From positions 56,825-120,824 of the forward strand of contig CAWAQY010000004.1 of assembly GCA_963784375.1 (NCBI GenBank): a stretch of DNA of 64,000 nt, given 5' to 3'. This document shows, piece after piece, positions 3,327 to 53,600 of this stretch. A program made the translations under genes and the position numbers. The first letter of the stretch is position 1, and the number at the start of each line of letters is the position of its first letter. The stretch comes from an uncultured Chloroflexia bacterium. GTDB taxonomy: Bacteria; Chloroflexota; Dehalococcoidia; GIF9; UBA5629. The notes beneath the pieces are model-generated. The model saw nothing but the letters and a program-made list of their open reading frames with translations. It searched no databases and was not told the DNA's origin.

Positions 3327-4803
3327 CTATTTTTCCTTCAGTATTTTCAATGCCTTTTGTCTGGATTCCTGGGACCAGCTTTCAAAGTTCAGAATATCTG
3401 GAATATTATTAGGATCAGTCAGATGCCACTCGAATGGGAATCCGGCATCGATTACCACCGATGATCCGCCTTTTTGTTTTGTCACTCTGTCCTCCCATGA
3501 GTTCCTGGGCACGAGAGCCAAAGCTCCACCCCTGTCTTTGATAATCTGGATGCTCCGCTCCGGGTCGCTCCTGGTTGTCAACGCCCAGATAACCTGGTTA
3601 ATATTGGTGGGGTCGACATCATCATCAACGACGATAATCCAGGATGCTGCAGCGGCGATAAGGCAATGCTTATGGCTCCAGATGGCACTGGCGATTATTT
3701 GAGGTAGCCCGGACATTACTCTTTTGGCAGATACAATGCATAGCCCGACGCCGAAAGCGTGCGGGTGGAAAAATAAATCCTTTACACCGGGGATTTTCAA
3801 AGTATCGATCACATGGTTTTTCAGCAGGGCGGTACCGACAGGTGCTCCAGTTTATGCTGTCATCGGTCATCGGTGTTGATTCCATCGAACCGGTGTGTAT
3901 GGGATTATTCCTGTGGGTGATACATTTTACGTGGAATACCGGTTTCGGGAACTCAGCACCTCCGTAATAGCCGGCGGCTTCACCAAAGGGACCCTCCATC
4001 TTTAATTCGTCTGTAGGGACTTCCCCTTCGAGAATTATTTCGGCATTTGCGGGAACCGGGAGATCATTTGTCTCAGCTTTGATCAACTCAACGGGCGCTT
4101 GCCTCAATGCTCCAGCCATCTCAACTTCAGAAACACCTTCATCAAATGGCGAAGCTGATACAATCGGGTGGGTGGGGTCTTGCCCGATCACCACCGCCAG
4201 CGGCATCGGTTTGCCCAGAGCTTTGTATTTCTCATAGAGGATCCAGCTATGTTGTCCCGGAATGACCCACAACCCTGTCGTATTTTTGTCATGAATTCCC
4301 ATTCTATACATGCCCCAGTTGACCCAACCGCTATCCGGGTCTTTCATGATAACCGTATGGAAAGTACCGATATACCTGTGGCCGTCTTTGGCGTGCCATT
4401 TCGGTGTAGGTAGTTTAAAAAGGTCAACATCTTTTCCCTTCAGGATGTTTTCTTTGCAGGGTCCGCTTTTGACAATCACAGGCTTGACCGGATGCTTGGC
4501 ACGCTGGCGCCAGGTCTCGATGATTTCCCGAGCCGGCGTATTTATTGGAAGGCCCAGTGCCAGAGCGTATCTTCGATAGCTGGCTATGGTGTTAGTGAAG
4601 AATCTGCCGCCGGGATATCCGGTTATGTTTTCAAAAATGACTGCCGGAGCATTAATTCCTCCGGTCTCCCTATCAATCAATCTTTTTGAAATTGCCCCTA
4701 TCTCCTCTTCCCAATGTACTTCTTCTTTTATCCGCAGCAGCTCTCCCTCGCTCTCAAGTTTAGCCAGGAATTCCCGCAAATCTTTATACGCCATTAATCT
4801 CAA
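3327..4803 (-). CDS. UbiD-family (prFMN-dependent) decarboxylase; frameshifted near 3810-3860
   Basis: The N-terminus MAYKDLREFLAKLESEGELLRI is the canonical UbiD start, and the body matches UbiD/3-octaprenyl-4-hydroxybenzoate carboxy-lyase throughout. The C-terminal 161 aa continue in another frame (3327-3812). The local repeat tcatcggtcatcggtg at ~3855 could be a small duplication or an error. Confidence 0.8.
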
Positions 4804-4871
4804 TTACTCCATTATATTTTTAATTGCTGATGATCGATTAGAAACCCATGGAGGAACTAAATTTCACCAAT

Positions 4872-6312
4872 TCATTTCAGCGATGGCTCTTTTGCCGCGT
4901 TCTTGCCAGCGGCAAGCCCCTGGGAAGCGGAAGCAGAGGTCATTACCCCCAGTAAGTACGTTTTTGTGCACAGGCCGCCAGTTACTTCCCCGGCAGCATA
5001 GAGTCCCGGAATAGGTTCGGCATATTGGTTTAATACCTGGCCCTTTCCGTTTATCTTTAAGCCGCCTTTCATAGAGGTGGTTGAAGTAACGCATCTCACA
5101 GCGTAATAAGGTCCTTTATCTAATTTGAAAATCGGTGTTGGAATCCCGCCTTTCTGTACCCTTCTGCCAAAGACGGTATCGTAACCCTTTTTATCTATAT
5201 CCGAATTATATTTTTCTATCGTTTTGCTCAGACCTTTGGCATCGATACCGGCAATGTCGGCCAATTTTTCCAGAGTGGTTGCTTTCATTTGCTTGCAACG
5301 TTCCAGGGCAAGCATGAAATCTTTGCCTCCACCTTTGGCATAAGCTTCGCCAGCCGCCAAAATATCTTTCCTGGTTTTATCGCTCCAGATAATAAAGTAA
5401 CCGCCCGATTGTTGCATACCGGCTCCGGTCATGGGCCCATAGAAAGAGTCAGGATACGACTCATCGGCAAACCTTTGCCCTTTAGCGTTTACCATGATCC
5501 CACCGAAATTAAGTGCTCTCAGGGCATTGGAATGGGTTACGGCATCAACCGGCCAGGCCGGTGCAACAGCCTTTCCTATATCCTTTGTGGCAGCACCTAC
5601 AGCCAGCCCCATCTTTAGCCCGTCGCCCATATGGCTTGGAGGCATCACCGGTACGCAATCCACCATGTCAGGGGCGAACTCAGCTACCATTTCAGCATTT
5701 CTGCCAAATCCGCCGCTGGTTATAATTACGGCTTTCCTGGCTTTAAAATATTTAGTCTTGCCGCCCGCGGTAACTATGACTCCAGCCACTTTCCCCGTTT
5801 TGGGGTCCATGATCAAGGCGGGTAGCCCTGTGTTCGTTGAGTATCTCCACACCTTTTCTTCTCGCCCTATCTTCCAGAGCCTTGACTATTTTCAAACCCA
5901 TGTTACCTATTGATAAGGAGCCCAGGCCTCTGGGGACGCTGTGGCCTGGTAGATGAATTACCCCTGGGAATTTTACACCCTCATCCCGGATCATTTTGTA
6001 AACTTCAAGCTGGTTGTCGGCATAAGCTCTGGCTATTTCCGGTTCAGCTCCGCTTACTTCTACCATATCCTTGTAAAGAATTTCGGGTGAATCTTTAATC
6101 CCTTTTGCTTTTTGCTCGTCACTGCCTGCAGTATTGAAACTGCCCCATACCATCCTTAAGCTTCCACCGCACATCTTCCTTACTTCAAGTACAGTCGCGT
6201 TCAATCCTGCCTCGGCAACCTTTATCGAAGCCGGCAGCCCTGCGGTTCCTCCTCCAATGATAATGACATCGGATACGTGGTCCCATTTTTTTGGCATTTC
6301 TGATGCTGACAC
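4872..6312 (-). CDS. FAD-dependent oxidoreductase (fumarate reductase/succinate dehydrogenase flavoprotein-like, FAD_binding_2); frameshifted ~5760-5850
   Basis: The N-terminus has a dinucleotide fold VIIIGGGTAGLPASIKVAEAG..LE. The C-terminal part (4872-5852) carries ...VIITSGGFGRN..., GLYAAGEVTGG. The two ORFs overlap in different frames. Confidence 0.75.
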
Positions 6313-6336
6313 TGATTTTTCCTCCTCTTATTATTT

Positions 6337-6645
6337 TTATTTACTTTTGGAATGAAGCCTTTTCCATTTTTCCAGCAATTGTTTGCGACTCTCTTTGAAA
6401 TCCGGGTCCGGAACAGGGGCTCCTACCGGGCAAATCTCGGCGCACCTGGCCGAATCTCGAAACCCGACACATTCGGTGCATTTTTCAGGGTCGATGACAT
6501 ACGCGTTTTCGCCTTCACTGATTGCTTTGTTGAGGCACTCTACCTGGCACACACCGCACGCTAAACAGTCACTGTTAATTTTGTAAGCCATTGTCTTCTG
6601 GACTCCTCTATTGATTAATCGTTTGATATTTGGAAGAATGTACAA
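6337..6645 (-). CDS. 4Fe-4S dicluster ferredoxin-like protein
   Basis: Two cysteine clusters are present: CLACGVCQVEC and CTECVGFRDSARCAEICP. Confidence 0.7.
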   Translation of the reverse strand: MYILPNIKRLINRGVQKTMAYKINSDCLACGVCQVECLNKAISEGENAYVIDPEKCTECVGFRDSARCAEICPVGAPVPDPDFKESRKQLLEKWKRLHSKSK

Positions 6646-6891
6646 ATATCTGTTTTGTATATTGACAAATAACCAGCGGATTTATTAGTATAGAAATTAC
6701 AGTGAACCTATCTTACGCGATATCGCTTGAGATATGTTGGTCATTTTATAGGAAAAATAAACCGTTTGTCAAGGGTTTTTCGGGGATAAAACTAATAAAT
6801 TTTTCGTTGCCATTTAAGGCATACAATGTAGAAATATGTAACAAATGAACATATAATAGAAACGCTAATTGAGGATATTGAGGACACAAAA

Positions 6892-7402
6892 ATGCCAAAG
6901 AGCGATAAAAACAAGATTGTGAATAAAGAGGCATTTAAACACCGTACATCTCTGGACAAGGACTATGGTTTGTGGGTGCTTTTAAATCAGGCCAGGGATT
7001 CGGTGCACAAGGCACGGGAAAAAGAGTTGATGCAGTACGGTATTTCCAGCAGTCAGGCTGCTGTCATGTTTATTTCGAAGATGATTGATAGTGAAGTAAC
7101 CCCTGGCGAAATATCCAGGTGGCTCTTGAAAGAACCTCACACGGTTTCTGCTATCATTATCCAGGATGGAGAAGCAAGGTCTTGTAAAAAAAATGAAAAG
7201 TAAGGGCAAGAATAATAGCGTTAATATCTCCCTGACCAAAGCGGGAGAGGAAGCGTATATCAATTCCGAAAAAATCCAGTCCCTCAAGGATATAATATCA
7301 AAATTAAATGCAGATGAGATCGAGCAGTTAAGCTCTCTTTTAGCCCGGTTGCGCGACATCGCCATAGACTATACTTCGCGGTTCAGGGTACCTTTCCCAT
7401 AA
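6892..7402 (+). CDS. MarR-family transcriptional regulator (frameshifted ~7150-7170)
   Basis: It is a paralog of the 41855-42352 MarR (…YGISSSQAAVMFI…TPGEISRWLLKEPHTVS // MEKQGLVKK…LTKAGEEAY…LSSLLARLRD). It has two ORF pieces in frames offset by one and is divergent to the UbiD/flavoprotein/ferredoxin genes. Confidence 0.75.
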
Positions 7403-7556
7403 GTTTGTTCTTACTACTATACCTCTATAATTCTATTCCTTATTCTCCGTTTATTTTCATTAGTTCTGCGCATCTTTTAATTTTCGAAGATATTTCTCAA
7501 CAGGCATACGAGGTGCTAGAATTAGTAAAACAATAGTTATTTCAAAGGTATAAAAC

Positions 7557-8483
7557 ATGCAGGTCTTAAAAGATAAAAAGATAGGCATTGCTTTGGGTGG
7601 TGGTGGTGCTCGCGGATATTTCCATATTGGAGTTCTCAGTGTACTGGAAGAATATGATATCCATCCTCACATAATAGCGGGCACCAGCATGGGATCAATA
7701 ATCGGGGCCCTCTATTCCAGCGGCCTCAGTGCCGGAGAAATAAAAGAAATGGCAGTGGGTATGGATTGGAGGAAGCTCATAACCCTGGCAGATATAATCG
7801 TCCCCCTTAGTGGCTTGATCCGGGGTGGAAGAGTTACTTCTCTCCTTAAGTCCATAGTGAAAGCCAGGACATTTGCTCAATTGAAGAAAAACTTTGCCTG
7901 TGTGGCGACAGACCTCAATACTGGCGAACAGGTAGTCTTAAACGAAGGTTCGCTGATTGAAGCCGTCAGAGCCAGTTGTTCAATACCGGCTATTTTCACG
8001 CCGGTAAACTTGAAAGGACGATACCTTATTGATGGAGGTCTTGTCAACGTGGTTCCGGTCAGTGTGTGCCATGATATGGGTGCCGATTTTGTAATCGGAG
8101 TAAATGTTATTCCGGGACCGAGGGAGAAAGTATCCATGCAGGAAGCTTTTGAGAAGTATAAAAGCTACCAGATGCATTCCGCTCTTTCTGAAAATGAAAG
8201 CAGCACCTTATTTGATAACGAAATCAGTTCCCTGTTTGCCAAGGAGCCCAGGTTGCATGACGTGGTAAGCCAAACACTTTCGATAATCGAATATCGAATA
8301 GCCATGGAAAATCTGAAGCAGGCTGATATCGCGATTACCCCTTTCAATGGAAACATCGGATTCTGGCAGTTCAATAGGGCGGCAGATGCCATAAATGCCG
8401 GGGAGATATCTACAAGGTTGGCTTTGCAGAGAAGCGATATAGCCCGCGGCATAATTGACCAGCAACGTTCGACGGTCTTGTAA
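7557..8483 (+). CDS. patatin-like phospholipase (RssA family)
   Basis: It carries a GGGARG oxyanion motif, a GTSMG (GxSxG) nucleophile elbow and DGGLVNVVP (the catalytic Asp). Confidence 0.85.
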   Translation: MQVLKDKKIGIALGGGGARGYFHIGVLSVLEEYDIHPHIIAGTSMGSIIGALYSSGLSAGEIKEMAVGMDWRKLITLADIIVPLSGLIRGGRVTSLLKSIVKARTFAQLKKNFACVATDLNTGEQVVLNEGSLIEAVRASCSIPAIFTPVNLKGRYLIDGGLVNVVPVSVCHDMGADFVIGVNVIPGPREKVSMQEAFEKYKSYQMHSALSENESSTLFDNEISSLFAKEPRLHDVVSQTLSIIEYRIAMENLKQADIAITPFNGNIGFWQFNRAADAINAGEISTRLALQRSDIARGIIDQQRSTVL

Positions 8484-8525
8484 TAGTCGGGCAGGCAGTT
8501 TGTTTGACCTGCTAAGGAGGTTACC

Positions 8526-8819
8526 TTGGAAAAAGAAAATTCCGATAGAAGAAATCCAGGAAAGGATTTTCGCACTATGTTTGAAGCTTTTGGGAAAGCC
8601 ATGAGCGAAGTATTTAATGATCCCGAACTGAAAGAAAAGGCAAAGGAAATGGGAGAAAGCATATCCAAATCCGCGGAGACATTTGCCAGCAGATTCAAGG
8701 ATGAAGATGTAAAAAAGAAATTCAGCGAGGCGGGTGAAGCAGCCAAGGAATTCGGGAAAAGCATGGCCGATTATTTCCAGTCGGATAAAAAGAATAATGA
8801 TAGCGATAAGCAAAAATGA
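8526..8819 (+). CDS. small Lys/Glu-rich hypothetical protein
   Basis: An RBS (aaggagg) lies 7 nt upstream of a TTG start. The protein is low-complexity and KE-rich with no recognised domain. Confidence 0.4.
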   Translation: MEKENSDRRNPGKDFRTMFEAFGKAMSEVFNDPELKEKAKEMGESISKSAETFASRFKDEDVKKKFSEAGEAAKEFGKSMADYFQSDKKNNDSDKQK

Positions 8820-8909
8820 AGGTTGCGGGACATTGCATAAGCGGTCAAACTACACAGAATGCAATTTAATTGCCAGCATAATACTCTGGTGATTCAATTA
8901 CTTTAATCG

Positions 8910-9497
8910 ATGTCTAAACCGCAGTGGAACCTTCTCTACCTTACGGGCAGAACACGCTGGAATACAGGAATCACTCCTCCCGAGCTTGTGGAAGTTATTG
9001 AAGGAGGGCAAATTCCTCCTGGTCGCGCTCTGGATATCGGGTGTGGCACCGGTACCAATACAATTTACCTGGCGAAGCATGGTTTTCAAGCTGTAGGGGT
9101 CGATGTCGCTTTTCTGGCGATTATTCAGGCAAGGTATAAGGCATGGCGGTTGGGACTGCCGGTGAAGTTTTCAACCGGAGACATTCTCAAGCTGGGATTG
9201 CCCGAATACCCCGTTCTTAGCGCTCCCGTTGATTTTGCCCTGGATATCGGATGCCTGCATTCCATGGGAACAATGCACCTCCAGTCTTATACCTCAATGT
9301 TGCTGCGAGTTTTGGCTAGTGGAGGGTTCTACCTTCTCTATGCCTGGTGGCCGCATGAATTACAGGGACGCCCGGTCGGGCTTAAACCTGAAGAATTGAA
9401 AGCAGCTCTGGGTAACAGTTTTCATGCTATCTGGACTCGCCAGGGTGAGGAGGGCGGAATACCCGCATTTTGGTACTTGTTTCAAAAATTGTCATAG
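8910..9497 (+). CDS. class I SAM-dependent methyltransferase (TPMT/tellurite-MTase-like)
   Basis: Motif I is present (ALDIGCGTGTNTIYLAKHG), followed by an acidic loop (VGVDV). Confidence 0.7.
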   Translation: MSKPQWNLLYLTGRTRWNTGITPPELVEVIEGGQIPPGRALDIGCGTGTNTIYLAKHGFQAVGVDVAFLAIIQARYKAWRLGLPVKFSTGDILKLGLPEYPVLSAPVDFALDIGCLHSMGTMHLQSYTSMLLRVLASGGFYLLYAWWPHELQGRPVGLKPEELKAALGNSFHAIWTRQGEEGGIPAFWYLFQKLS

Positions 9498-9512
9498 GCA
9501 ATCCTGTTAATA

Positions 9513-10331
9513 TTACCTGACGGGTTTTATTGCTTTAGCGGCGATGAATTGTCCGGTAAGATATCTGGTAGGCTTGTTTTCAAGCCCATCCAATAAACCC
9601 AGTATTTTTCTGGCAAAAATAATAAGTCGGGTAGATTTGAGCCGGCGTACCAATAGTAAAAATGCTCTGACAAAGAAGCGTGGATTATGAATAATTGCCG
9701 TGCAATCAACGACTTTCAAACCCACTGTTACCAGCCCCTTTTTAAGCTCTCTTATACTACAGGTTTCACCGATAAAAAAATGATAGAGCCGCAAAGCTAT
9801 CCAGATCCTGAAAAAAGGCTCGGTTATATTACCCTTATTGTCCATTGTAATAATAAGACAGCCACCGGGTTTGAGAACTCTGCCTAATTCGGATAATGCT
9901 TCCAGGATTTCTTTCTTGTGATGGAAATGATCTAATGTTGAATCGGAAATTATCAGGTCGAAGGATTCATCAACAAATGGCAGCTGCCGGACATCACATG
10001 TCATATAATTAGCCTTTGCCTCCGGAGCGTGATGTGCAGTTGCTGACTTGGCCAGATATGTCACTTTGGTTGAAATATCTATTCCTGTGATAGTGGCGTT
10101 TGTTAGCATTACGTTCCAAAGAAATGATCGAGAAGGGTCAGTAGCTTCGGCAAAAAGATCGGTCTTGAGAATCCTGGTGATTTGATTGTTACCAATCCAT
10201 CTGGATATCAGTTCGGAATGTATGTTTCGGTATTGTTCAGCGAGCAGAGAGTCGAAACCGCTTTCCCCGGCTACTTTCTCCGCGCAAAGGTTCCAGTATT
10301 CTGCTTCAGCTGCCCTGGTTATTTCTTTCAT
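9513..10331 (-). CDS. class I SAM-dependent methyltransferase
   Basis: Rossmann MTase motifs are present: ...ITGIDIS..., FDLIISDSTLDHF and VLKPGGCLIITM. It lies downstream of the radical-SAM gene on the same strand. Confidence 0.7.
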   Translation of the reverse strand: MKEITRAAEAEYWNLCAEKVAGESGFDSLLAEQYRNIHSELISRWIGNNQITRILKTDLFAEATDPSRSFLWNVMLTNATITGIDISTKVTYLAKSATAHHAPEAKANYMTCDVRQLPFVDESFDLIISDSTLDHFHHKKEILEALSELGRVLKPGGCLIITMDNKGNITEPFFRIWIALRLYHFFIGETCSIRELKKGLVTVGLKVVDCTAIIHNPRFFVRAFLLLVRRLKSTRLIIFARKILGLLDGLENKPTRYLTGQFIAAKAIKPVR

Positions 10332-10407
10332 ACTTTTACACGATGACCATCTTAACCAGTATAATCCCCTTCAGACAATTGCTTCTTTTTAAAATATATA
10401 GACTTTC

Positions 10408-11403
10408 TTATAGAGCAGCGAATGAACAATTACTACACGATTCTATTGCTTTATAATTCTTGTTTACTATCAATCGTCTTATTCTGTTGAATTTATCTGA
10501 ATTCCATATTTCCCTCAAAGAAGATTCTTTTGCATTGCCAACAACTGTACTTCTATTCCAGTCGTTGCAGCAAATAATCACATCTCCATTGAAAAGGACG
10601 TTCATCTGGTAGAAAGGCATTTGACACCCTGCCCTGCGTTGAAGAGGTAATACTAAAGATCTACGAAGCCTGGAAAAATATCCTTTCGCATAGTAACCCT
10701 GATTAGACCTGAGGCTATCGTAATTGGGGAGGGTCCCTGCTCTGTTGGTTAGTTCCAGAACCCTGGTGGCGACCCCCATTTTATTCCAAAATCGCACTGC
10801 CTGGTATACCTCGTTCTGATTTTGCTCAGTGAATATAAAGGACAGTATTACTTTTTTTCTCATTTCTTTGTTTGATAAAAGGAAGCTTATGTTTCGCATA
10901 ACCTTCTCATAGTCCAGCCCGCAGTTGATGCGCTCGAACATTTCTTTGGAATATGCATTGAGGCTGACAATCAAACAATCAAGATTTGAGAGTAATATAT
11001 CAGTCAAAGTGAATCGATCCAGTAATTCTCCGTTAGTAACCAGTGTGGCTTCCTTGCCGGGGCTTTTTGATTTAAAGTATTTGATGAACTCAAAAGTCCT
11101 TTTATCGAGGAGTGGCTCATTGTGCAGTTCATACACAATTCCACACAGGAGCTGTTCCGGTATTGCTTCATCAACAATTTTACTGTGAAGATCCCGGGTC
11201 ATTGTCCCATGGACCAGGTTTTTGCTTATGCTATGATAAGGGCAAATTGAACACTGGCCATTGCATCCGGTTAGTGTTTGAATCTGTAATCTTAAAGGAA
11301 AATCCAGGCATTGGCCAGTTCTTTGAAATTTGAAATAAGTCCGGGCCAGGTAAAAATACAAAGGCAAATGCCAATATGCAAATGGATCTTTCTTGATTCT
11401 CAT
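10408..11403 (-). CDS. radical SAM / SPASM-domain protein
   Basis: A CNGQCSIC (CxxxCxxC) motif follows the N-terminal region. A C-terminal Cys-rich SPASM-like segment is present (GDVIICCNDW...CSNCSF). Confidence 0.75.
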   Translation of the reverse strand: MRIKKDPFAYWHLPLYFYLARTYFKFQRTGQCLDFPLRLQIQTLTGCNGQCSICPYHSISKNLVHGTMTRDLHSKIVDEAIPEQLLCGIVYELHNEPLLDKRTFEFIKYFKSKSPGKEATLVTNGELLDRFTLTDILLSNLDCLIVSLNAYSKEMFERINCGLDYEKVMRNISFLLSNKEMRKKVILSFIFTEQNQNEVYQAVRFWNKMGVATRVLELTNRAGTLPNYDSLRSNQGYYAKGYFSRLRRSLVLPLQRRAGCQMPFYQMNVLFNGDVIICCNDWNRSTVVGNAKESSLREIWNSDKFNRIRRLIVNKNYKAIESCSNCSFAAL

Positions 11404-37854: not shown

Positions 37855-39510
37855 TTAAAATACCAGATATTCCTTCTGTGTTCCGAATACCTGACGAAGA
37901 ACATCGCACATTTCACCAATGCTGGCGTAAGCCTCTGCGCATTCCAAAAATGCCGGCATGGTATTTTCCTGGCTTTGTGCTGCGTGTTCCAGATTTTTCA
38001 AGCTCTTTTGAACCCGGCTATTGTCCCTTGTCTTTTTCACTTTGGCGAGCTGCTCTACCTGTTTTTCCTCCTTTTCCGGATTAAACTTGAGGAGAGGTAT
38101 CCTGGGGTAGGGTGACACGAATTTATTCACGCCAACTACTATGGATTTGCCCTCTTCGATATTCTTTTGCTGGCGATATGAGCTTTCCTGTATTTCTCTC
38201 TGCTGGAACCCTTCTTCAATAGCTGACACCGCACCGTTCAGACGGTCGATTTTAGCAATATATTTCTCTGCTTCCTTTTCCAGGGAATCGGTAAGCGATT
38301 CTACGAGGTAAGATCCGCCAAGGGGGTCGATCACATCACCTACTCCATTCTCAAAGGCCAGCAATTGCTGGGTGCGGAGGGCAATCGTTACCGCGTCTTC
38401 GGTAGGTACTGCATAGGCTTCATCAAAAGAGTTGGTATGAAGCGACTGAGTTCCACCAAGAATCGCTGCCAGGGCCTGAATTGCCACACGCACCACATTA
38501 TTATAAGGCTGCTGCGCAGTGAGTGTGCAGCCGGCAGTTTGAGTATGGAAGCGGAGCATCAGCGAACGCTGGTTCTGCGCCTTAAATCTCTGGCTCATTA
38601 TCTTGGCCCAGAGTCGGCGGGCAGCTCTGAACTTGGCAACTTCTTCAAATAGATTATTATGACTGTCAAAGAAGAATGAAAGCCTGCCGGCAAATTGGTC
38701 TACGCTAAGGCCGGCATCGAGGGCTGCCTGGACATAAGCAATGCCGTTTGCCAGGGTAAAAGCTATTTCCTGGGCTGCAGTGGCACCGGCTTCGCGGATA
38801 TGGTAGCCGCTGATGCTGATAGTATTCCAGTTCGGCACGTTCTTGCTGCAATAAGCAAATATATCCGTAGTCAGGCGCATGGAATGGCGCGGCGGGAAAA
38901 TATAGGTACCTCTGGCTATGTATTCCTTAAGGACATCGTTCTGGGTTGTGCCGTTTAGTTTATCTGGGCTCACGCCCTGCTTTTTAGCCAGGGCAATATA
39001 CATACCAAGCAAAACCGGTGCAGTAGCATTTATGGTCATCGAGGTACTGACTTTATCCAGTGGGATTTCTTTGAACAGAACCTCCATATCTGCCAGTGTA
39101 TCAATGGCAACTCCCACCTTGCCGACTTCACCTCGGGAGATGGGATGGTCCGAGTCATAACCTATCTGTGTAGGCAGATCAAATGCGACGCTGAGGCCGG
39201 TTTGTCCCTGATCCAGGAGATAACGATAGCGGCGGTTGGATTCTTCAGCAGTGGCAAAGCCGGCATACTGGCGCATGGTCCAGAATCTGCCTCGATACAT
39301 GGTTGGCTGGATTCCTCTGGTAAAGGGATGTTCACCGGGATAACCCAGGGAAGCCTGCATAATCAAAGCTTCCCATGTCTTCGGGGGAATACACGGGTTC
39401 CAGAGTTATACCGTCTCCGGTTTCAAAACTCTTTTGCCGCTCAGGTTTTTTAGAGAGTGCAGAAGCGAAAGTGGAACCTTTCCACTCTTGCTTGTTTTTG
39501 CTGGGCATGG
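37855..39510 (-). CDS. methylmalonyl-CoA mutase large (catalytic) subunit; N-terminal frameshift ~39366
   Basis: The 503-aa piece aligns with the MCM catalytic domain ([25 protein letters not shown]...). A further roughly 48 aa of N-terminus lie in another frame. Confidence 0.85.
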
Positions 39511-39658
39511 TGTGCCTCCTGATAAATCCGGGTGATAATATAGAGCGGATATTCTAGCACAATAGCAGAAGCTAAACCAACCGAGGTATCCAGGCTAAAT
39601 CTTGCGTCACGCCAAAATTGACGTCAGTGGATAGTATTTGCTAGAATCGGCTTCTTCA

Positions 39659-39798
39659 GGGGATATAGCTCAATTGGGAGAGCGTCCCGATTTGATCGGG
39701 AAGGTCATGATCTCCCACTTGTTGAAGAGGGGATATAGCTCAATTGGGAGAGCGTCCCGATTTGATCGGGAAGGTCATGATCTCCCACTTGTTGAAGA
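39659..39798 (+). repeat. two perfect tandem 70-bp tRNA-like units (acceptor 5'-half + D-arm + anticodon-like hairpin + 3'-acceptor-like, no T-arm)
   Basis: The units are 39659-39728 and 39729-39798. The 5' 26 nt are identical to the 5' end of the adjacent tRNA-Ala. The hairpin tcccg-atttgat-cggga replaces the anticodon arm, and atgatctccca resembles the tRNA 3' end tatctccacca. Confidence 0.7.
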
Positions 39799-39874
39799 GG
39801 GGATATAGCTCAATTGGGAGAGCGCTGCGTTCGCATCGCAGAGGTCGGGGGTTCGAATCCCCCTATCTCCACCA
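39799..39874 (+). tRNA. tRNA-Ala (anticodon CGC)
   Basis: It folds as a cloverleaf with the G3:U70 Ala identity pair. The anticodon loop is uuCGCau, the T-arm is ggggg-ttcgaat-ccccc, and it ends in CCA. Confidence 0.85.
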
Positions 39875-39892
39875 ATGTGTTTTAATATATTT

Positions 39893-40139
39893 CGTAATGT
39901 TTTACGCATATATTCTTCAAAGTGAATTGACCAGACAATACTATATTGGCTCAACTCAGGATGTAACTACGCGAATAAAAGAACACAACGCTGGTAGGAC
40001 CCCTTCAACAAAAGCACACCGCCCGTGGAAAGTGGTTTATACCGAACCTTTTAACTCGCTGAGTGAAGCAAGACAAAGAGAACGTCAGATTAAATCCTGG
40101 AAGAATCCCAAATATATGATCAAAACCCTCGGAATATAG
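39893..40139 (+). CDS. small GIY-YIG nuclease-superfamily protein (UPF0213/YhbQ-like)
   Basis: The GIY-YIG core is MFYAYILQS...YYIGSTQDVTTRIKEHNAG...KSWK. Its last codons and stop lie inside tRNA-derived sequence. The track ORF 39744-40139 is an artefact that runs through the tRNA. Confidence 0.7.
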
Positions 40140-40248
40140 CTCAATTGAGAGAGCATCGCGTTCGCATCGCAGAGGTCGGAGGTGCCGATTTTATACGGCA
40201 TCCCGCATGAACTATGAATCGGGTGTTCGAATCCCCCTATCTCCACCA
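40131..40248 (+). pseudogene. degenerate tRNA-Ala(CGC) copy carrying a 41-nt hairpin insertion between variable region and T-arm
   Basis: It is homologous to 39799-39874 on both sides of the insertion. There are mismatches in the acceptor, anticodon and T stems. The insertion forms a 7-bp stem (ggtgccg/cggcatc). Confidence 0.6.
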
Positions 40249-40298
40249 TAAATTAAAAAATTCGGCAATGTTTTTACCACGAGCTATAATTATGGTCA

Positions 40299-53338: not shown

Positions 53339-53600
53339 GATTAAAAGTTTACGCCCAAAATATTACAACCATGGTGCAAACCGCAGGGTACACTCCCAAT
53401 CTGTTACCCCTTTTTGACAAAAAGAGTGTAATACCTTATTCTTAATAATGCCATCGACTATTGGCGGTGAGCGTTGTGCAAATAGAATACTAAAGAGCGC
53501 TTGGATCAGTAATGACCGAGACGTGGAATAGAGCGGTTGATTTTAGGCCTTCTCGGCAATGCTGAGAAGGTTTTTTATTTTAAATGCAGACTTAAATCAC

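Follow-up and report, generated by a model that had tools for sequence, protein, structure and literature searches.

SegB, a free-standing GIY-YIG homing endonuclease whose gene lies among the clustered tRNA genes of T4/T6-like phages, cleaves within tRNA genes at the T-loop-box motif RAWTSGAAC and drives a recombination-dependent (UvsX/UvsY-dependent) tandem amplification of tRNA-Tyr together with segB, with truncated gene copies arising (PMC13096335). [quoted passage not shown] Here we describe a locus of ∼790 base pairs (bp) from an uncultured Chloroflexia bacterium, contained in a stretch of 64,000 nucleotides (nt) of contig CAWAQY010000004.1 (positions 56,825 to 120,824) that we refer to as the window. 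In this locus a minimal Slx1-like GIY-YIG gene follows a tRNA-Ala(CGC) gene, and tRNA-derived units with a characteristic hairpin precede it. We met parts of the same module again in at least 120 stretches of metagenome DNA and, starting from the protein, in ∼20 loci of Chloroflexi, Deltaproteobacteria, and other genomes, and the module is apparently both undescribed and widespread. The reading that we favor, with confidence evenly poised between acceptance and doubt, is that of a selfish, homing-type, recombination-driven nuclease element living at tRNA genes.

What these loci (numbered L001 onward) have in common is a minimal Slx1-like GIY-YIG gene that immediately follows the 3' end of a tRNA gene of the same orientation and that has tRNA-derived units after or before it. 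The closest protein relatives, with 61 to 74% identity, were found in metagenome-assembled genomes (MAGs) of Dehalococcoidia and other Chloroflexi. On their contigs the gene lies 2 to 30 nt 3' of a full tRNA-Ala gene on the same strand, with anticodon CGC in L001, GGC in L003, and TGC in L005. About 12 nt 3' of the stop codon these relatives carry a partial tRNA copy. It starts with the D-stem 3' strand, continues with a TCCCGAT-N-ATCGGGA hairpin where the anticodon arm would be and then with the variable loop and T arm, and ends in the acceptor 3' strand and CCA. A scan of one genome per species with the protein yielded 15 further loci through a single peptide pattern, so that these counts are lower bounds; all share the layout, and they include tRNA-Ile (L012) and tRNA-Val (L013) loci. 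Of 20 distinct protein-anchored loci, 17 have the hairpin ∼12 nt downstream of the stop codon, and one more, L013, has only Ns there; generally the stop codon is situated 1 to 16 nt upstream of the hairpin or inside it.

The link between gene and hairpin was seen at tRNA-Ala (CGC, GGC, and TGC), tRNA-Ile, tRNA-Val, and tRNA-Asn genes, down to ∼45% protein identity. The stem was unchanged at a tRNA-Asn gene of a deltaproteobacterial MAG (L145, 47% protein identity), in L146 (55% identity), and at a tRNA-Val gene of an AT-rich genome (L149, 45% identity), where the stop codon falls into the hairpin loop. In the window, L017, L146, and L149, the last codons of the open reading frame (ORF) are at the same time the acceptor or D arm of a tRNA-like gene; in L146, for example, the C-terminal codons DSSAG* are the D arm AGCTCAGCTGGCTAG. 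A different hairpin, TCCGCC-TCA-GGCGGA, occupies the equivalent place in L147, an IMG/VR contig whose protein is 43% identical, which hints that the stem sequence co-varies with the protein clade. Within the same contig (positions 1350 to 1830), the GIY-YIG relative is flanked by direct repeats of a tRNA 3' part. Another relative of 43% identity, the P0081 type (L150/L151, positions 1201 to 1461), is encoded between an AbiEii-family gene and genes for DUF7695 and an HsdR-like helicase; neither tRNA nor hairpin was found at that locus, and this branch of the family may be linked to defense.

To collect the hairpin independently of the protein, we used the pattern GAGARCGTCCCGATN{3,5}ATCGGGAAGG, which matched in at least 120 metagenome stretches; all hairpin counts given here refer to the matches listed from these stretches together with the protein-anchored loci. 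Across all loci 197 hairpins were listed, against a chance expectation of ∼0.4 per megabase for 12 fixed bases. Their stem arms are nearly invariant, reading TCCCGAT/ATCGGGA in 159 cases; among the remainder are compensatory variants, with CCCCGAT/ATCGGGG in 4 cases and a few TCCCGAC/GTCGGGA stems or single mismatches. The loop between CCCGAT and ATCGGG measured 3 nt (n = 111), 4 nt (n = 79), or 5 nt (n = 7) and took more than 40 different sequences, the Ala-type triplets TGC and GGC being the commonest, as expected for decay from tRNA-Ala. The hairpin is colinear with the anticodon arm, its stem TCCCG/CGGGA being lengthened by an A-T pair at positions 32/38 and a T-A pair at 33/37. Since loop length and sequence vary while the 7-bp stem stays, the TTG in the loop of the window units is not an anticodon: the UUG-like anticodon proposed in an earlier note on this DNA is one among many arbitrary loops of 3 to 5 nt. 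The variable spacing between the stem halves also makes recognition of a stem-loop more plausible than binding of a dimer to duplex DNA, and the element is probably to be read as a stem-loop, in single-stranded DNA, in a cruciform, or in RNA, rather than as a duplex palindrome.

The listed hairpins nearly always abut a real tRNA gene, mostly tRNA-Ala of any anticodon, and they are also found inside Ile-Ala rRNA spacers. The commonest class, to which the window units belong (75 of 197), consists of the acceptor 5' strand, the D arm, the hairpin, and AGGTN, after which the unit is truncated or degenerate; such units often stand in tandem upstream of the real tRNA (L015, L090, L122, L111, L028, and L081). 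The 3' tails of 73 homologous units were unrelated in sequence. The tRNA-derived flanks of the units usually match the local tRNA: identity to the neighboring tRNA was complete over 26/26 nt for 28 of 87 5' parts and over 28/28 nt for 32 of 49 3' parts. In L001 and L005, the encoded CCA and the native downstream flank follow the pseudo-tRNA and not the working tRNA. Other arms are affected as well, with the same motif or other hairpins replacing the D arm (L008, L100, L119, and L126) or splitting the T loop between GGTTC and GAATCC (L022, L030, L096, L104, and L118). No part is deleted or split as often in nonfunctional copies as the T loop, which is where the SegB motif lies, but this parallel is suggestive only. 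The 5' units of L100, L119, L126, and L076 carry a long hairpin with the loop UUCG, CGGG, or CGCG in place of the D loop, in L126 with a G-U pair, which suggests selection on structure in some units.

GIY-YIG proteins were the only family associated with the hairpin, and all 67 of the 67 GIY-YIG genes in the hairpin loci listed are on the same strand as the units. The order seen in the window, namely, 5' unit(s), tRNA-Ala, GIY-YIG gene, and 3' unit, was found again in L015, L030, L047, L067, L103, L107, L116, L118, and L139, while in a second order the 5' unit is followed by the gene and then by tRNA-Ala (L008, L016, L026, L037, L083, L109, L110, L114, and L124). Upstream repeats are absent in most of the protein-anchored loci. 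The earlier note had expected the finding to lose significance if orthologous loci in relatives carried the units with no GIY-YIG association. Formally this is the case, with a gene within 800 nt in 19 of the 42 listed hairpin loci having at least 800 nt on both sides, whereas on the protein side the link is nearly universal (17 of 20 loci); hairpin units with no GIY-YIG gene nearby change the meaning of the finding rather than remove it.

Within the window, whose numbering we use below, all parts of the locus are on the (+) strand:

39618 to 39647 (+): putative promoter of the sigma-70 type, TTGACG-18 nt-TAGAAT plus a TG (10 of 12 positions agree with the consensus scanned for)

39659 to 39728 (+): unit 1, a 5'-type hairpin pseudo-tRNA unit (TRF; Rfam tRNA, 26.9 bits; model R1, 69.4 bits)

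39729 to 39798 (+): unit 2, a perfect copy of unit 1 with 100% identity (TRF; model R1, 69.4 bits)

39799 to 39874 (+): functional tRNA-Ala(CGC) with G3:U70 and encoded CCA (ARAGORN; Rfam, 71.2 bits; cloverleaf as minimum-free-energy fold)

39897 to 40139 (+): gene of a predicted minimal GIY-YIG nuclease of 80 amino acids (aa), Slx1-like/UPF0213 type (Pfam PF01541, E value 2.5e-17)

40130 to 40248 (+): pseudo-tRNA, a degenerate full-length copy of tRNA-Ala(CGC) ending in CCA (Rfam tRNA, 24.8 bits with a ∼41-nt insertion; alignment to the real tRNA)

40183 to 40223 (+): 41-nt double-hairpin insert in the T arm of the pseudo-tRNA (fold, for the first hairpin; recurrence elsewhere)

40249 to 40275 (+): weak vestige of a second tRNA-to-ORF spacer with start codon (direct repeat D3, 77% over 22 nt)

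The TRF program reported a period of 70 bp with 2.4 copies and 100% matches at 39658 to 39824, the partial third copy being the first 26 nt (5') of the genuine tRNA-Ala(CGC). Each unit opens with the acceptor 5' strand and the D arm, in which it agrees with the tRNA at 26/26 nt; the hairpin, AGGTC, and a 22-nt tail follow, and there is neither a T arm nor CCA. Up to the tail its sequence is GGGAGAGCG-TCCCGATTTGATCGGGA-AGGTC, where the hairpin TCCCGATTTGATCGGGA, that is, TCCCGAT-TTG-ATCGGGA, occupies 39685 to 39701 in unit 1 and 39755 to 39771 in unit 2. The copy number of this perfect repeat is as assembled; similar tandem units with small differences between the copies are present in the independent assemblies L015, L122, and L090. 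We built a covariance model, R1, on 32 units, none of them from the window; it covers the acceptor 5' strand, the D arm, the TCCCGAT/ATCGGGA stem, and AGGTN. It scored 69.4 bits (E value 1.5e-16) at both 39659 to 39706 and 39729 to 39776, compared to 50.8 bits for the real tRNA and 27.0 bits for the pseudo-tRNA. Aligned over the protein-anchored loci, R1 took in real tRNAs along with units, and this alignment was kept out of covariation counts. The 70-bp units, which lie on the same strand as the adjoining tRNA-Ala(CGC) and match it over 26/26 nt, are bona fide members of the hairpin pseudo-tRNA unit family, of its truncated, ORF-less 5' type.

ARAGORN, and Rfam at its gathering score, made 39799 to 39874 the sole tRNA call at the locus. 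A relaxed Rfam tRNA scan, as the earlier note had proposed, picked up the units at 26.9 bits, aligned to RF00005 with the T arm deleted, and the pseudo-tRNA at 24.8 bits, both below the gathering score of 29. The putative promoter ends 11 nt before unit 1, the units thus lying between the tRNA promoter and the tRNA, and the consensus scan found no further promoter-like site between the units and tRNA-Ala. One transcript probably comprises unit 1, unit 2, tRNA-Ala, and the ORF, as judged from the position of this promoter. The GIY-YIG ORF starts 22 nt 3' of tRNA-Ala and overlaps the beginning of the pseudo-tRNA by 10 nt. The pseudo-tRNA differs from the tRNA in the acceptor, in the D loop, and by one anticodon-stem mismatch, and it is split at the boundary between T stem and T loop by the insert TGCCG-ATTTTATA-CGGCA followed by TCCCG-CATGAACTATGAAT-CGGG, with boundaries that are ambiguous by 1 to 2 nt. 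The first half of the insert folds as a hairpin with a 7-bp stem. Several claims of the earlier note therefore held as made: the two perfect tandem units upstream of an apparently functional tRNA-Ala, their tRNA-identical acceptor half and D arm, the tRNA-derived 3' end of the ORF, and the hairpin-forming 41-nt insertion. Its 3' acceptor-like tail, GATCTCCC, fared differently, pairing with the acceptor 5' strand at 6 of 7 positions, a level that about half of shuffled tails reach or exceed.

The 41-nt insert recurs at the same T-arm position in L003 (a tRNA-Ala GGC locus), L015 (a TGC locus), and L043, in the latter two with compensatory changes in the stem such as TCCCG/CGGGA to TTCCG/CGGAA. 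A loose regular-expression search for the insert returned mostly noise, out of which we accepted only four independent true instances. In addition to the T-arm insert, L015 carries a tandem pair of 5' units. Downstream of the pseudo-tRNA, the vestige TAAATTAAAAAATTCGGCAATGTTTT resembles the spacer TGTTTTAATATATTTCGTAATGTTTT, the similarity ending just past the ATG; this is weak evidence for a second spacer.

The locus as a whole is flanked by genes for methylmalonyl-CoA mutase and an MFS transporter. The mutase gene (39332 to 39508 and 37855 to 39366, both on the minus strand) appears frameshifted: its N-terminal ∼50 codons (MPSKNK...) are in another frame than the remainder, which places a 1-nt indel near 39345 to 39360, for which a sequencing error, a pseudogene, or recoding are candidates. 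Rfam searches of the window at gathering and permissive thresholds, and of 12 related loci at gathering thresholds, returned only tRNA, rRNA, and an unrelated pan motif (RF01749, window positions 53449 to 53528 on the plus strand, 37.8 bits, just over the gathering score of 36.2), and no Rfam family for the hairpin units. We found no account of the module in the searchable literature, most subscription journals being outside our reach, so that an earlier description is possible.

Complete hairpin units in L069 (positions 58 to 228), L128, L135, and L011 were called tRNA-Glu(ttc), tRNA-Phe(gaa), or tRNA-Gly(tcc) by ARAGORN, and such calls are likely false tRNA annotations in public genomes. The L069 unit has A3:U70 and no U8 and is probably disabled as an alanine acceptor. 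An rRNA operon in L140 (positions 4582 to 10983) has a ∼6.4-kb 16S-23S spacer with tRNA-Ile, tRNA-Ala, and at least five hairpin pseudo-tRNA units, and similar arrays follow tRNA-Ala(TGC) in the rRNA spacers of L049, L137, L044, and L128. In L010 (positions 456 to 503), a tRNA-Ala(TGC)-like gene stops right after the anticodon, between CCTGCTTTGCAC and CCGTGAAGCC, which may reflect an intron or a truncation.

The 80-aa protein consists of the GIY-YIG domain only, with no DNA-binding domain, and matches Pfam PF01541 with 63.4 bits (cutoff, 22.6). The catalytic-type residues Y5, Y16, R26, H30, and E62 vary little or not at all across 33 relatives. In a profile search against PDB the best hits were the UPF0213 proteins BH0048 (1zg2; E value 8e-10) and EF2693 (1ywl; 2e-9), followed by SLX1 (3e-5), with I-TevI at 0.2. 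The AlphaFold model (pLDDT, 96.7) most resembles BH0048 and the nuclease domain of Slx1, with TM scores of 0.67 to 0.75, compared to ∼0.48 for I-TevI and UvrC. By sequence the protein is a member of the GIY-YIG superfamily and of its prokaryotic Slx1-like/UPF0213 group and is a predicted nuclease; it has neither the I-TevI-lineage domain nor the DNA-binding domain that characterize free-standing I-TevI/Seg-type enzymes. The nuclease of the tRNA-targeting GIY-YIG element supposed in the earlier note is thus not a classical homing enzyme of the I-TevI/Seg type, and with such a minimal domain, site-specific nicking of a tRNA-Ala gene is a guess. Scans with NCBIfam and PADLOC gave nothing over noise. 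The family comprises 4,729 clusters (50% identity) at E values of ≤1e-10. Of 59 representatives with an N-terminal extension, roughly half open with translated tRNA (for example, AQLVE..., ...GSSP..., ...VRIP..., or ...GFESP...) and are thus miscalled at the start, which indicates a family-wide position just after tRNA genes of many isotypes.

The gene occurs at different tRNA-Ala isoacceptors and among unrelated neighbors in different genomes, and there are signs of local turnover. Two tandem gene copies are present in L005, an internally deleted copy precedes an intact one in L002, and internally deleted or frameshifted copies were seen in L002, L020, and L089; fragmentary copies and ORF-less arrays (L020, L137, and L140) occur as well. 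The loci L033 and L126 have flanks that are ∼90% identical and contents that differ: in L033, tRNA-Ala(GGC) is followed by the gene, a 3' unit, and a terminator, whereas L126 has a 5' unit, tRNA-Ala(GGC), and a terminator. The final 21 nt of the L033 insert are identical to the variable loop and T arm of the local tRNA. In L107 and L114, with flanks 85% identical, the gene is on opposite sides of the tRNA. The contigs of L009 and L047 are 98% identical, but in L009 (positions 868 to 1880) an additional ∼1 kb separates tRNA-Ala(GGC) from the GIY-YIG gene. This segment has a 256-aa ORF on the opposite strand and suggests that a further insertion took place there. As to the locus of the window itself, the collections searched held no close relative of the source genome, and the three closest relatives of its MFS neighbor (69 to 83% identity) were neither syntenic nor accompanied by a tRNA, so that no empty site was found. 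The comparison of relatives called for in the earlier note accordingly succeeded for the module, parts of which differ in presence and absence, and yielded no syntenic relative for the window. From the mobile-element layout that the note had described, the rearrangement tied to a GIY-YIG gene living at tRNA genes is retained and the excision is not. A phage vehicle was considered and rejected, as none of 2.9 million viral contigs matched the hairpin pattern and the protein had no more than two distant relatives there.

The anatomy of the locus, its recurrence, the linkage of protein, hairpin, and tRNA, the local identity of the flanks, and the one presence/absence pair point to a selfish element; from sequence we infer, beyond this, nuclease activity, recognition of the hairpin, mobility, and a mechanism of homing and amplification. 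The element would have two components: a gene for an Slx1-like GIY-YIG protein of ∼80 to 85 aa directly 3' of a tRNA gene, with which it is probably cotranscribed, and one or more tRNA-derived pseudogenes in which the anticodon arm is replaced by the TCCCGAT/ATCGGGA stem with an arbitrary loop of 3 to 5 nt. The nuclease would break DNA at or near tRNA-like sequence, the conserved stem-loop most likely being its cis recognition element. Repair by homologous recombination, with the tRNA-derived flanks as homology arms, would copy the gene and the hairpin unit into tRNA loci and leave local duplications, truncations, and ORF-less remnants as by-products. A single crossover 3' of the hairpin between an element-borne hairpin tRNA-like gene and a chromosomal tRNA would generate the main architecture, that is, a restored tRNA, the gene, and a displaced 3' unit to which the native CCA and flank are joined. 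If the crossover or conversion took place on the 5' side and the ORF was then lost, promoter-proximal 5' units like those of the window would result, and unequal recombination between repeats would give tandem copies, including the two 70-bp units. In the window, tRNA-Ala(CGC) is the working gene and the GIY-YIG gene is intact; the downstream pseudo-tRNA would be the 3' unit of the element, and the units would be ORF-less 5' remnants that combine the chromosomal promoter, the 5' part of the tRNA, and the hairpin of the element. The CGC-type anticodon arm of the window's 3' unit perhaps arose by back-conversion from the neighboring tRNA.

A more far-reaching version of this mechanism, which we put forward tentatively as less likely than not but with a real chance, is that of a structure-guided selfish element: an Slx1-like nuclease that has no DNA-binding domain would find its substrate through the conserved stem-loop on a tRNA-derived cloverleaf. 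By copying itself it would enter tRNA genes across bacterial phyla, and the hairpin pseudo-tRNAs would be the footprints left behind. The cloverleaf could be folded single-stranded DNA that mimics a four-way junction, or an RNA partner.

Several observations weigh against a homing-type element. By profile and predicted structure, the protein is of the Slx1-like lineage rather than the homing-enzyme lineage, with no domain for DNA binding. An intact functional tRNA always remains beside the gene, so that the usual logic, in which disruption of the target gives immunity, fails if the target is inside the tRNA. More than half of the listed hairpin units have no GIY-YIG gene nearby, and in the window the unit after the gene is without the hallmark hairpin. 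Stem mismatches are few and show no strand bias (G-T versus A-C), so that they do not separate RNA from DNA readings. Some units with UUCG-type hairpins, or with a T arm that doubles as a terminator, hint at selection at the RNA level. Finally, a single presence/absence pair was found, at ∼90% flank identity.

An RNA-level element is a viable if unlikely alternative that does not exclude the selfish-element reading. Here the hairpin pseudo-tRNA would be a cis-acting untranslated region of the nuclease mRNA, 3' in most loci and 5' in others, or a stable tRNA-derived small RNA, and the stem-loop would be bound as RNA. It might control processing by tRNA-maturation enzymes, stability, termination, or translation of the nuclease, or might act as an RNA partner or antidote of the protein; the two units of the window would be leader RNAs freed when RNase P matures the tRNA. 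Such a role fits the finding that hairpin and ORF invariably share a strand, and apparently a transcript, with the stop codon just before the hairpin or inside it, and it fits the putative promoter immediately before unit 1. That the loop varies in length speaks for recognition of a stem-loop, and the UUCG-type D-loop hairpins with a G-U pair in some units and the T arm with a U run in the L033 unit, which resembles a terminator, agree with an RNA role as well. Taken alone, however, an RNA role leaves unexplained the duplications of tRNA parts, the local identity of the flanks, the ORF-less arrays in rRNA spacers, and the differences in presence and absence; mismatches show no bias for G-U over A-C, and the GIY-YIG enzymes known so far act on DNA (PMC1564403).

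We consider it rather improbable that the repeats are passive, arising, like those downstream of E. coli tyrT, by slippage or unequal crossing-over at a highly transcribed tRNA gene, with the GIY-YIG gene a passenger that uses the tRNA promoter. Tandem and perfect copies, flanks that match the neighboring tRNA, and the many unit arrays with no nearby nuclease gene would all be expected under this explanation. What it does not account for is the identical 7-bp stem that replaces the anticodon arm across phyla and isotypes and tracks the protein family, since passive decay would not keep the stem while the loop randomizes, or the recurrence of the 41-nt insert across loci.

Still less probable, and in our view very unlikely, are leftover attachment sites of an integrase-type element or an artifact of assembly. 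Integrative elements do duplicate parts of tRNA genes, and collapsed or expanded copies are a known hazard in that perfect short tandem repeats are error prone in short-read assembly. The locus, however, has no integrase, the 80-aa ORF being the sole ORF between the mutase and MFS genes, and tRNA 5' parts are duplicated, not 3' parts alone; an artifact could alter only the copy number, and nonidentical copies stand in the same layout across many independent assemblies. A function of the 70-bp units as T-arm-less tRNAs or tRNA-like adaptors, with UUG for an anticodon and G3:U70 for alanine identity, can practically be dismissed in spite of U33 and A37 in a 7-nt loop and an Rfam alignment covering the acceptor, D arm, anticodon-like arm, and 3' tail, since these truncated pseudo-tRNA units score below threshold, receive no ARAGORN call, have no CCA, are not predicted to fold as a cloverleaf, end in unconserved tails that pair at chance level, and carry across the family an arbitrary triplet in a loop that is often 8 to 9 nt long, and since bacterial EF-Tu and the ribosome need a T arm.

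If the selfish-element reading is true, it would provide a function and a natural substrate for the 4,729 clusters of "hypothetical" minimal GIY-YIG proteins. It would likewise explain the recurrent pseudo-tRNAs and miscalled tRNAs with odd anticodons near tRNA-Ala genes and in rRNA spacers, and would extend the link between GIY-YIG enzymes and tRNA gene amplification from phages to cellular chromosomes. The invariant 7-bp stem with its free loop poses a compact problem of protein-nucleic acid recognition. For annotation, the units are better flagged than counted as tRNA genes, and the nuclease ORFs should not be extended into the upstream tRNA.

Among known systems, the UPF0213 proteins BH0048 and EF2693 share fold, family, and single-domain architecture with the window protein. 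At the DNA level, tRNA genes reportedly serve as attachment sites of integrative elements. In integrase-borne islands and prophages an intact tRNA is restored and a partial copy is displaced, with the native 3' flank after the copy, as in L001 and L005; the present module differs in having no integrase, in its size of ∼350 bp, in the duplication of 5' parts, and in the replaced anticodon arm of the displaced copy. Repeats linked to a tRNA are also said to lie downstream of E. coli tyrT. As here, they are reportedly tandem, with a part of the tRNA in each and unequal recombination as the presumed origin, but they carry the tRNA 3' end only and are not known to have a conserved substituted hairpin, a nuclease gene, or conservation across phyla.

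Hairpin-dependent elements that use Y1 (HUH) transposases, namely, REP/RAYT and IS200/IS605, resemble the module in their short stem-loop, in multiple or tandem copies, in being linked to one nuclease family, and in their many orphans. They are not known to be built on tRNA scaffolds, whereas here the enzyme is of the GIY-YIG type and the units are confined to tRNA loci. Type III toxin-antitoxin systems (ToxIN) combine tandem short RNA-coding repeats with a small nuclease gene downstream of them in a single transcription unit, an arrangement that the window repeats recall. A ToxIN-like system was rejected given that most members have no upstream repeats, the tRNA stands between repeats and gene, the fold is that of a GIY-YIG DNase, and PADLOC scores were at noise.

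SegB appears to be the closest functional analogue and experimental precedent. In both cases a GIY-YIG gene resides among tRNA genes, and tandem amplification and truncated gene copies are features of SegB. SegB is a much larger phage enzyme of the I-TevI/Seg lineage, whereas an 80-aa Slx1-like domain is encoded here on cellular chromosomes, and the conserved-hairpin pseudo-tRNAs seen here have no counterpart at SegB loci. By this analogy the module would work like a free-standing homing-endonuclease locus in a tRNA cluster, yet with a protein of the Slx1-like minimal family and not of the I-TevI/Seg lineage.

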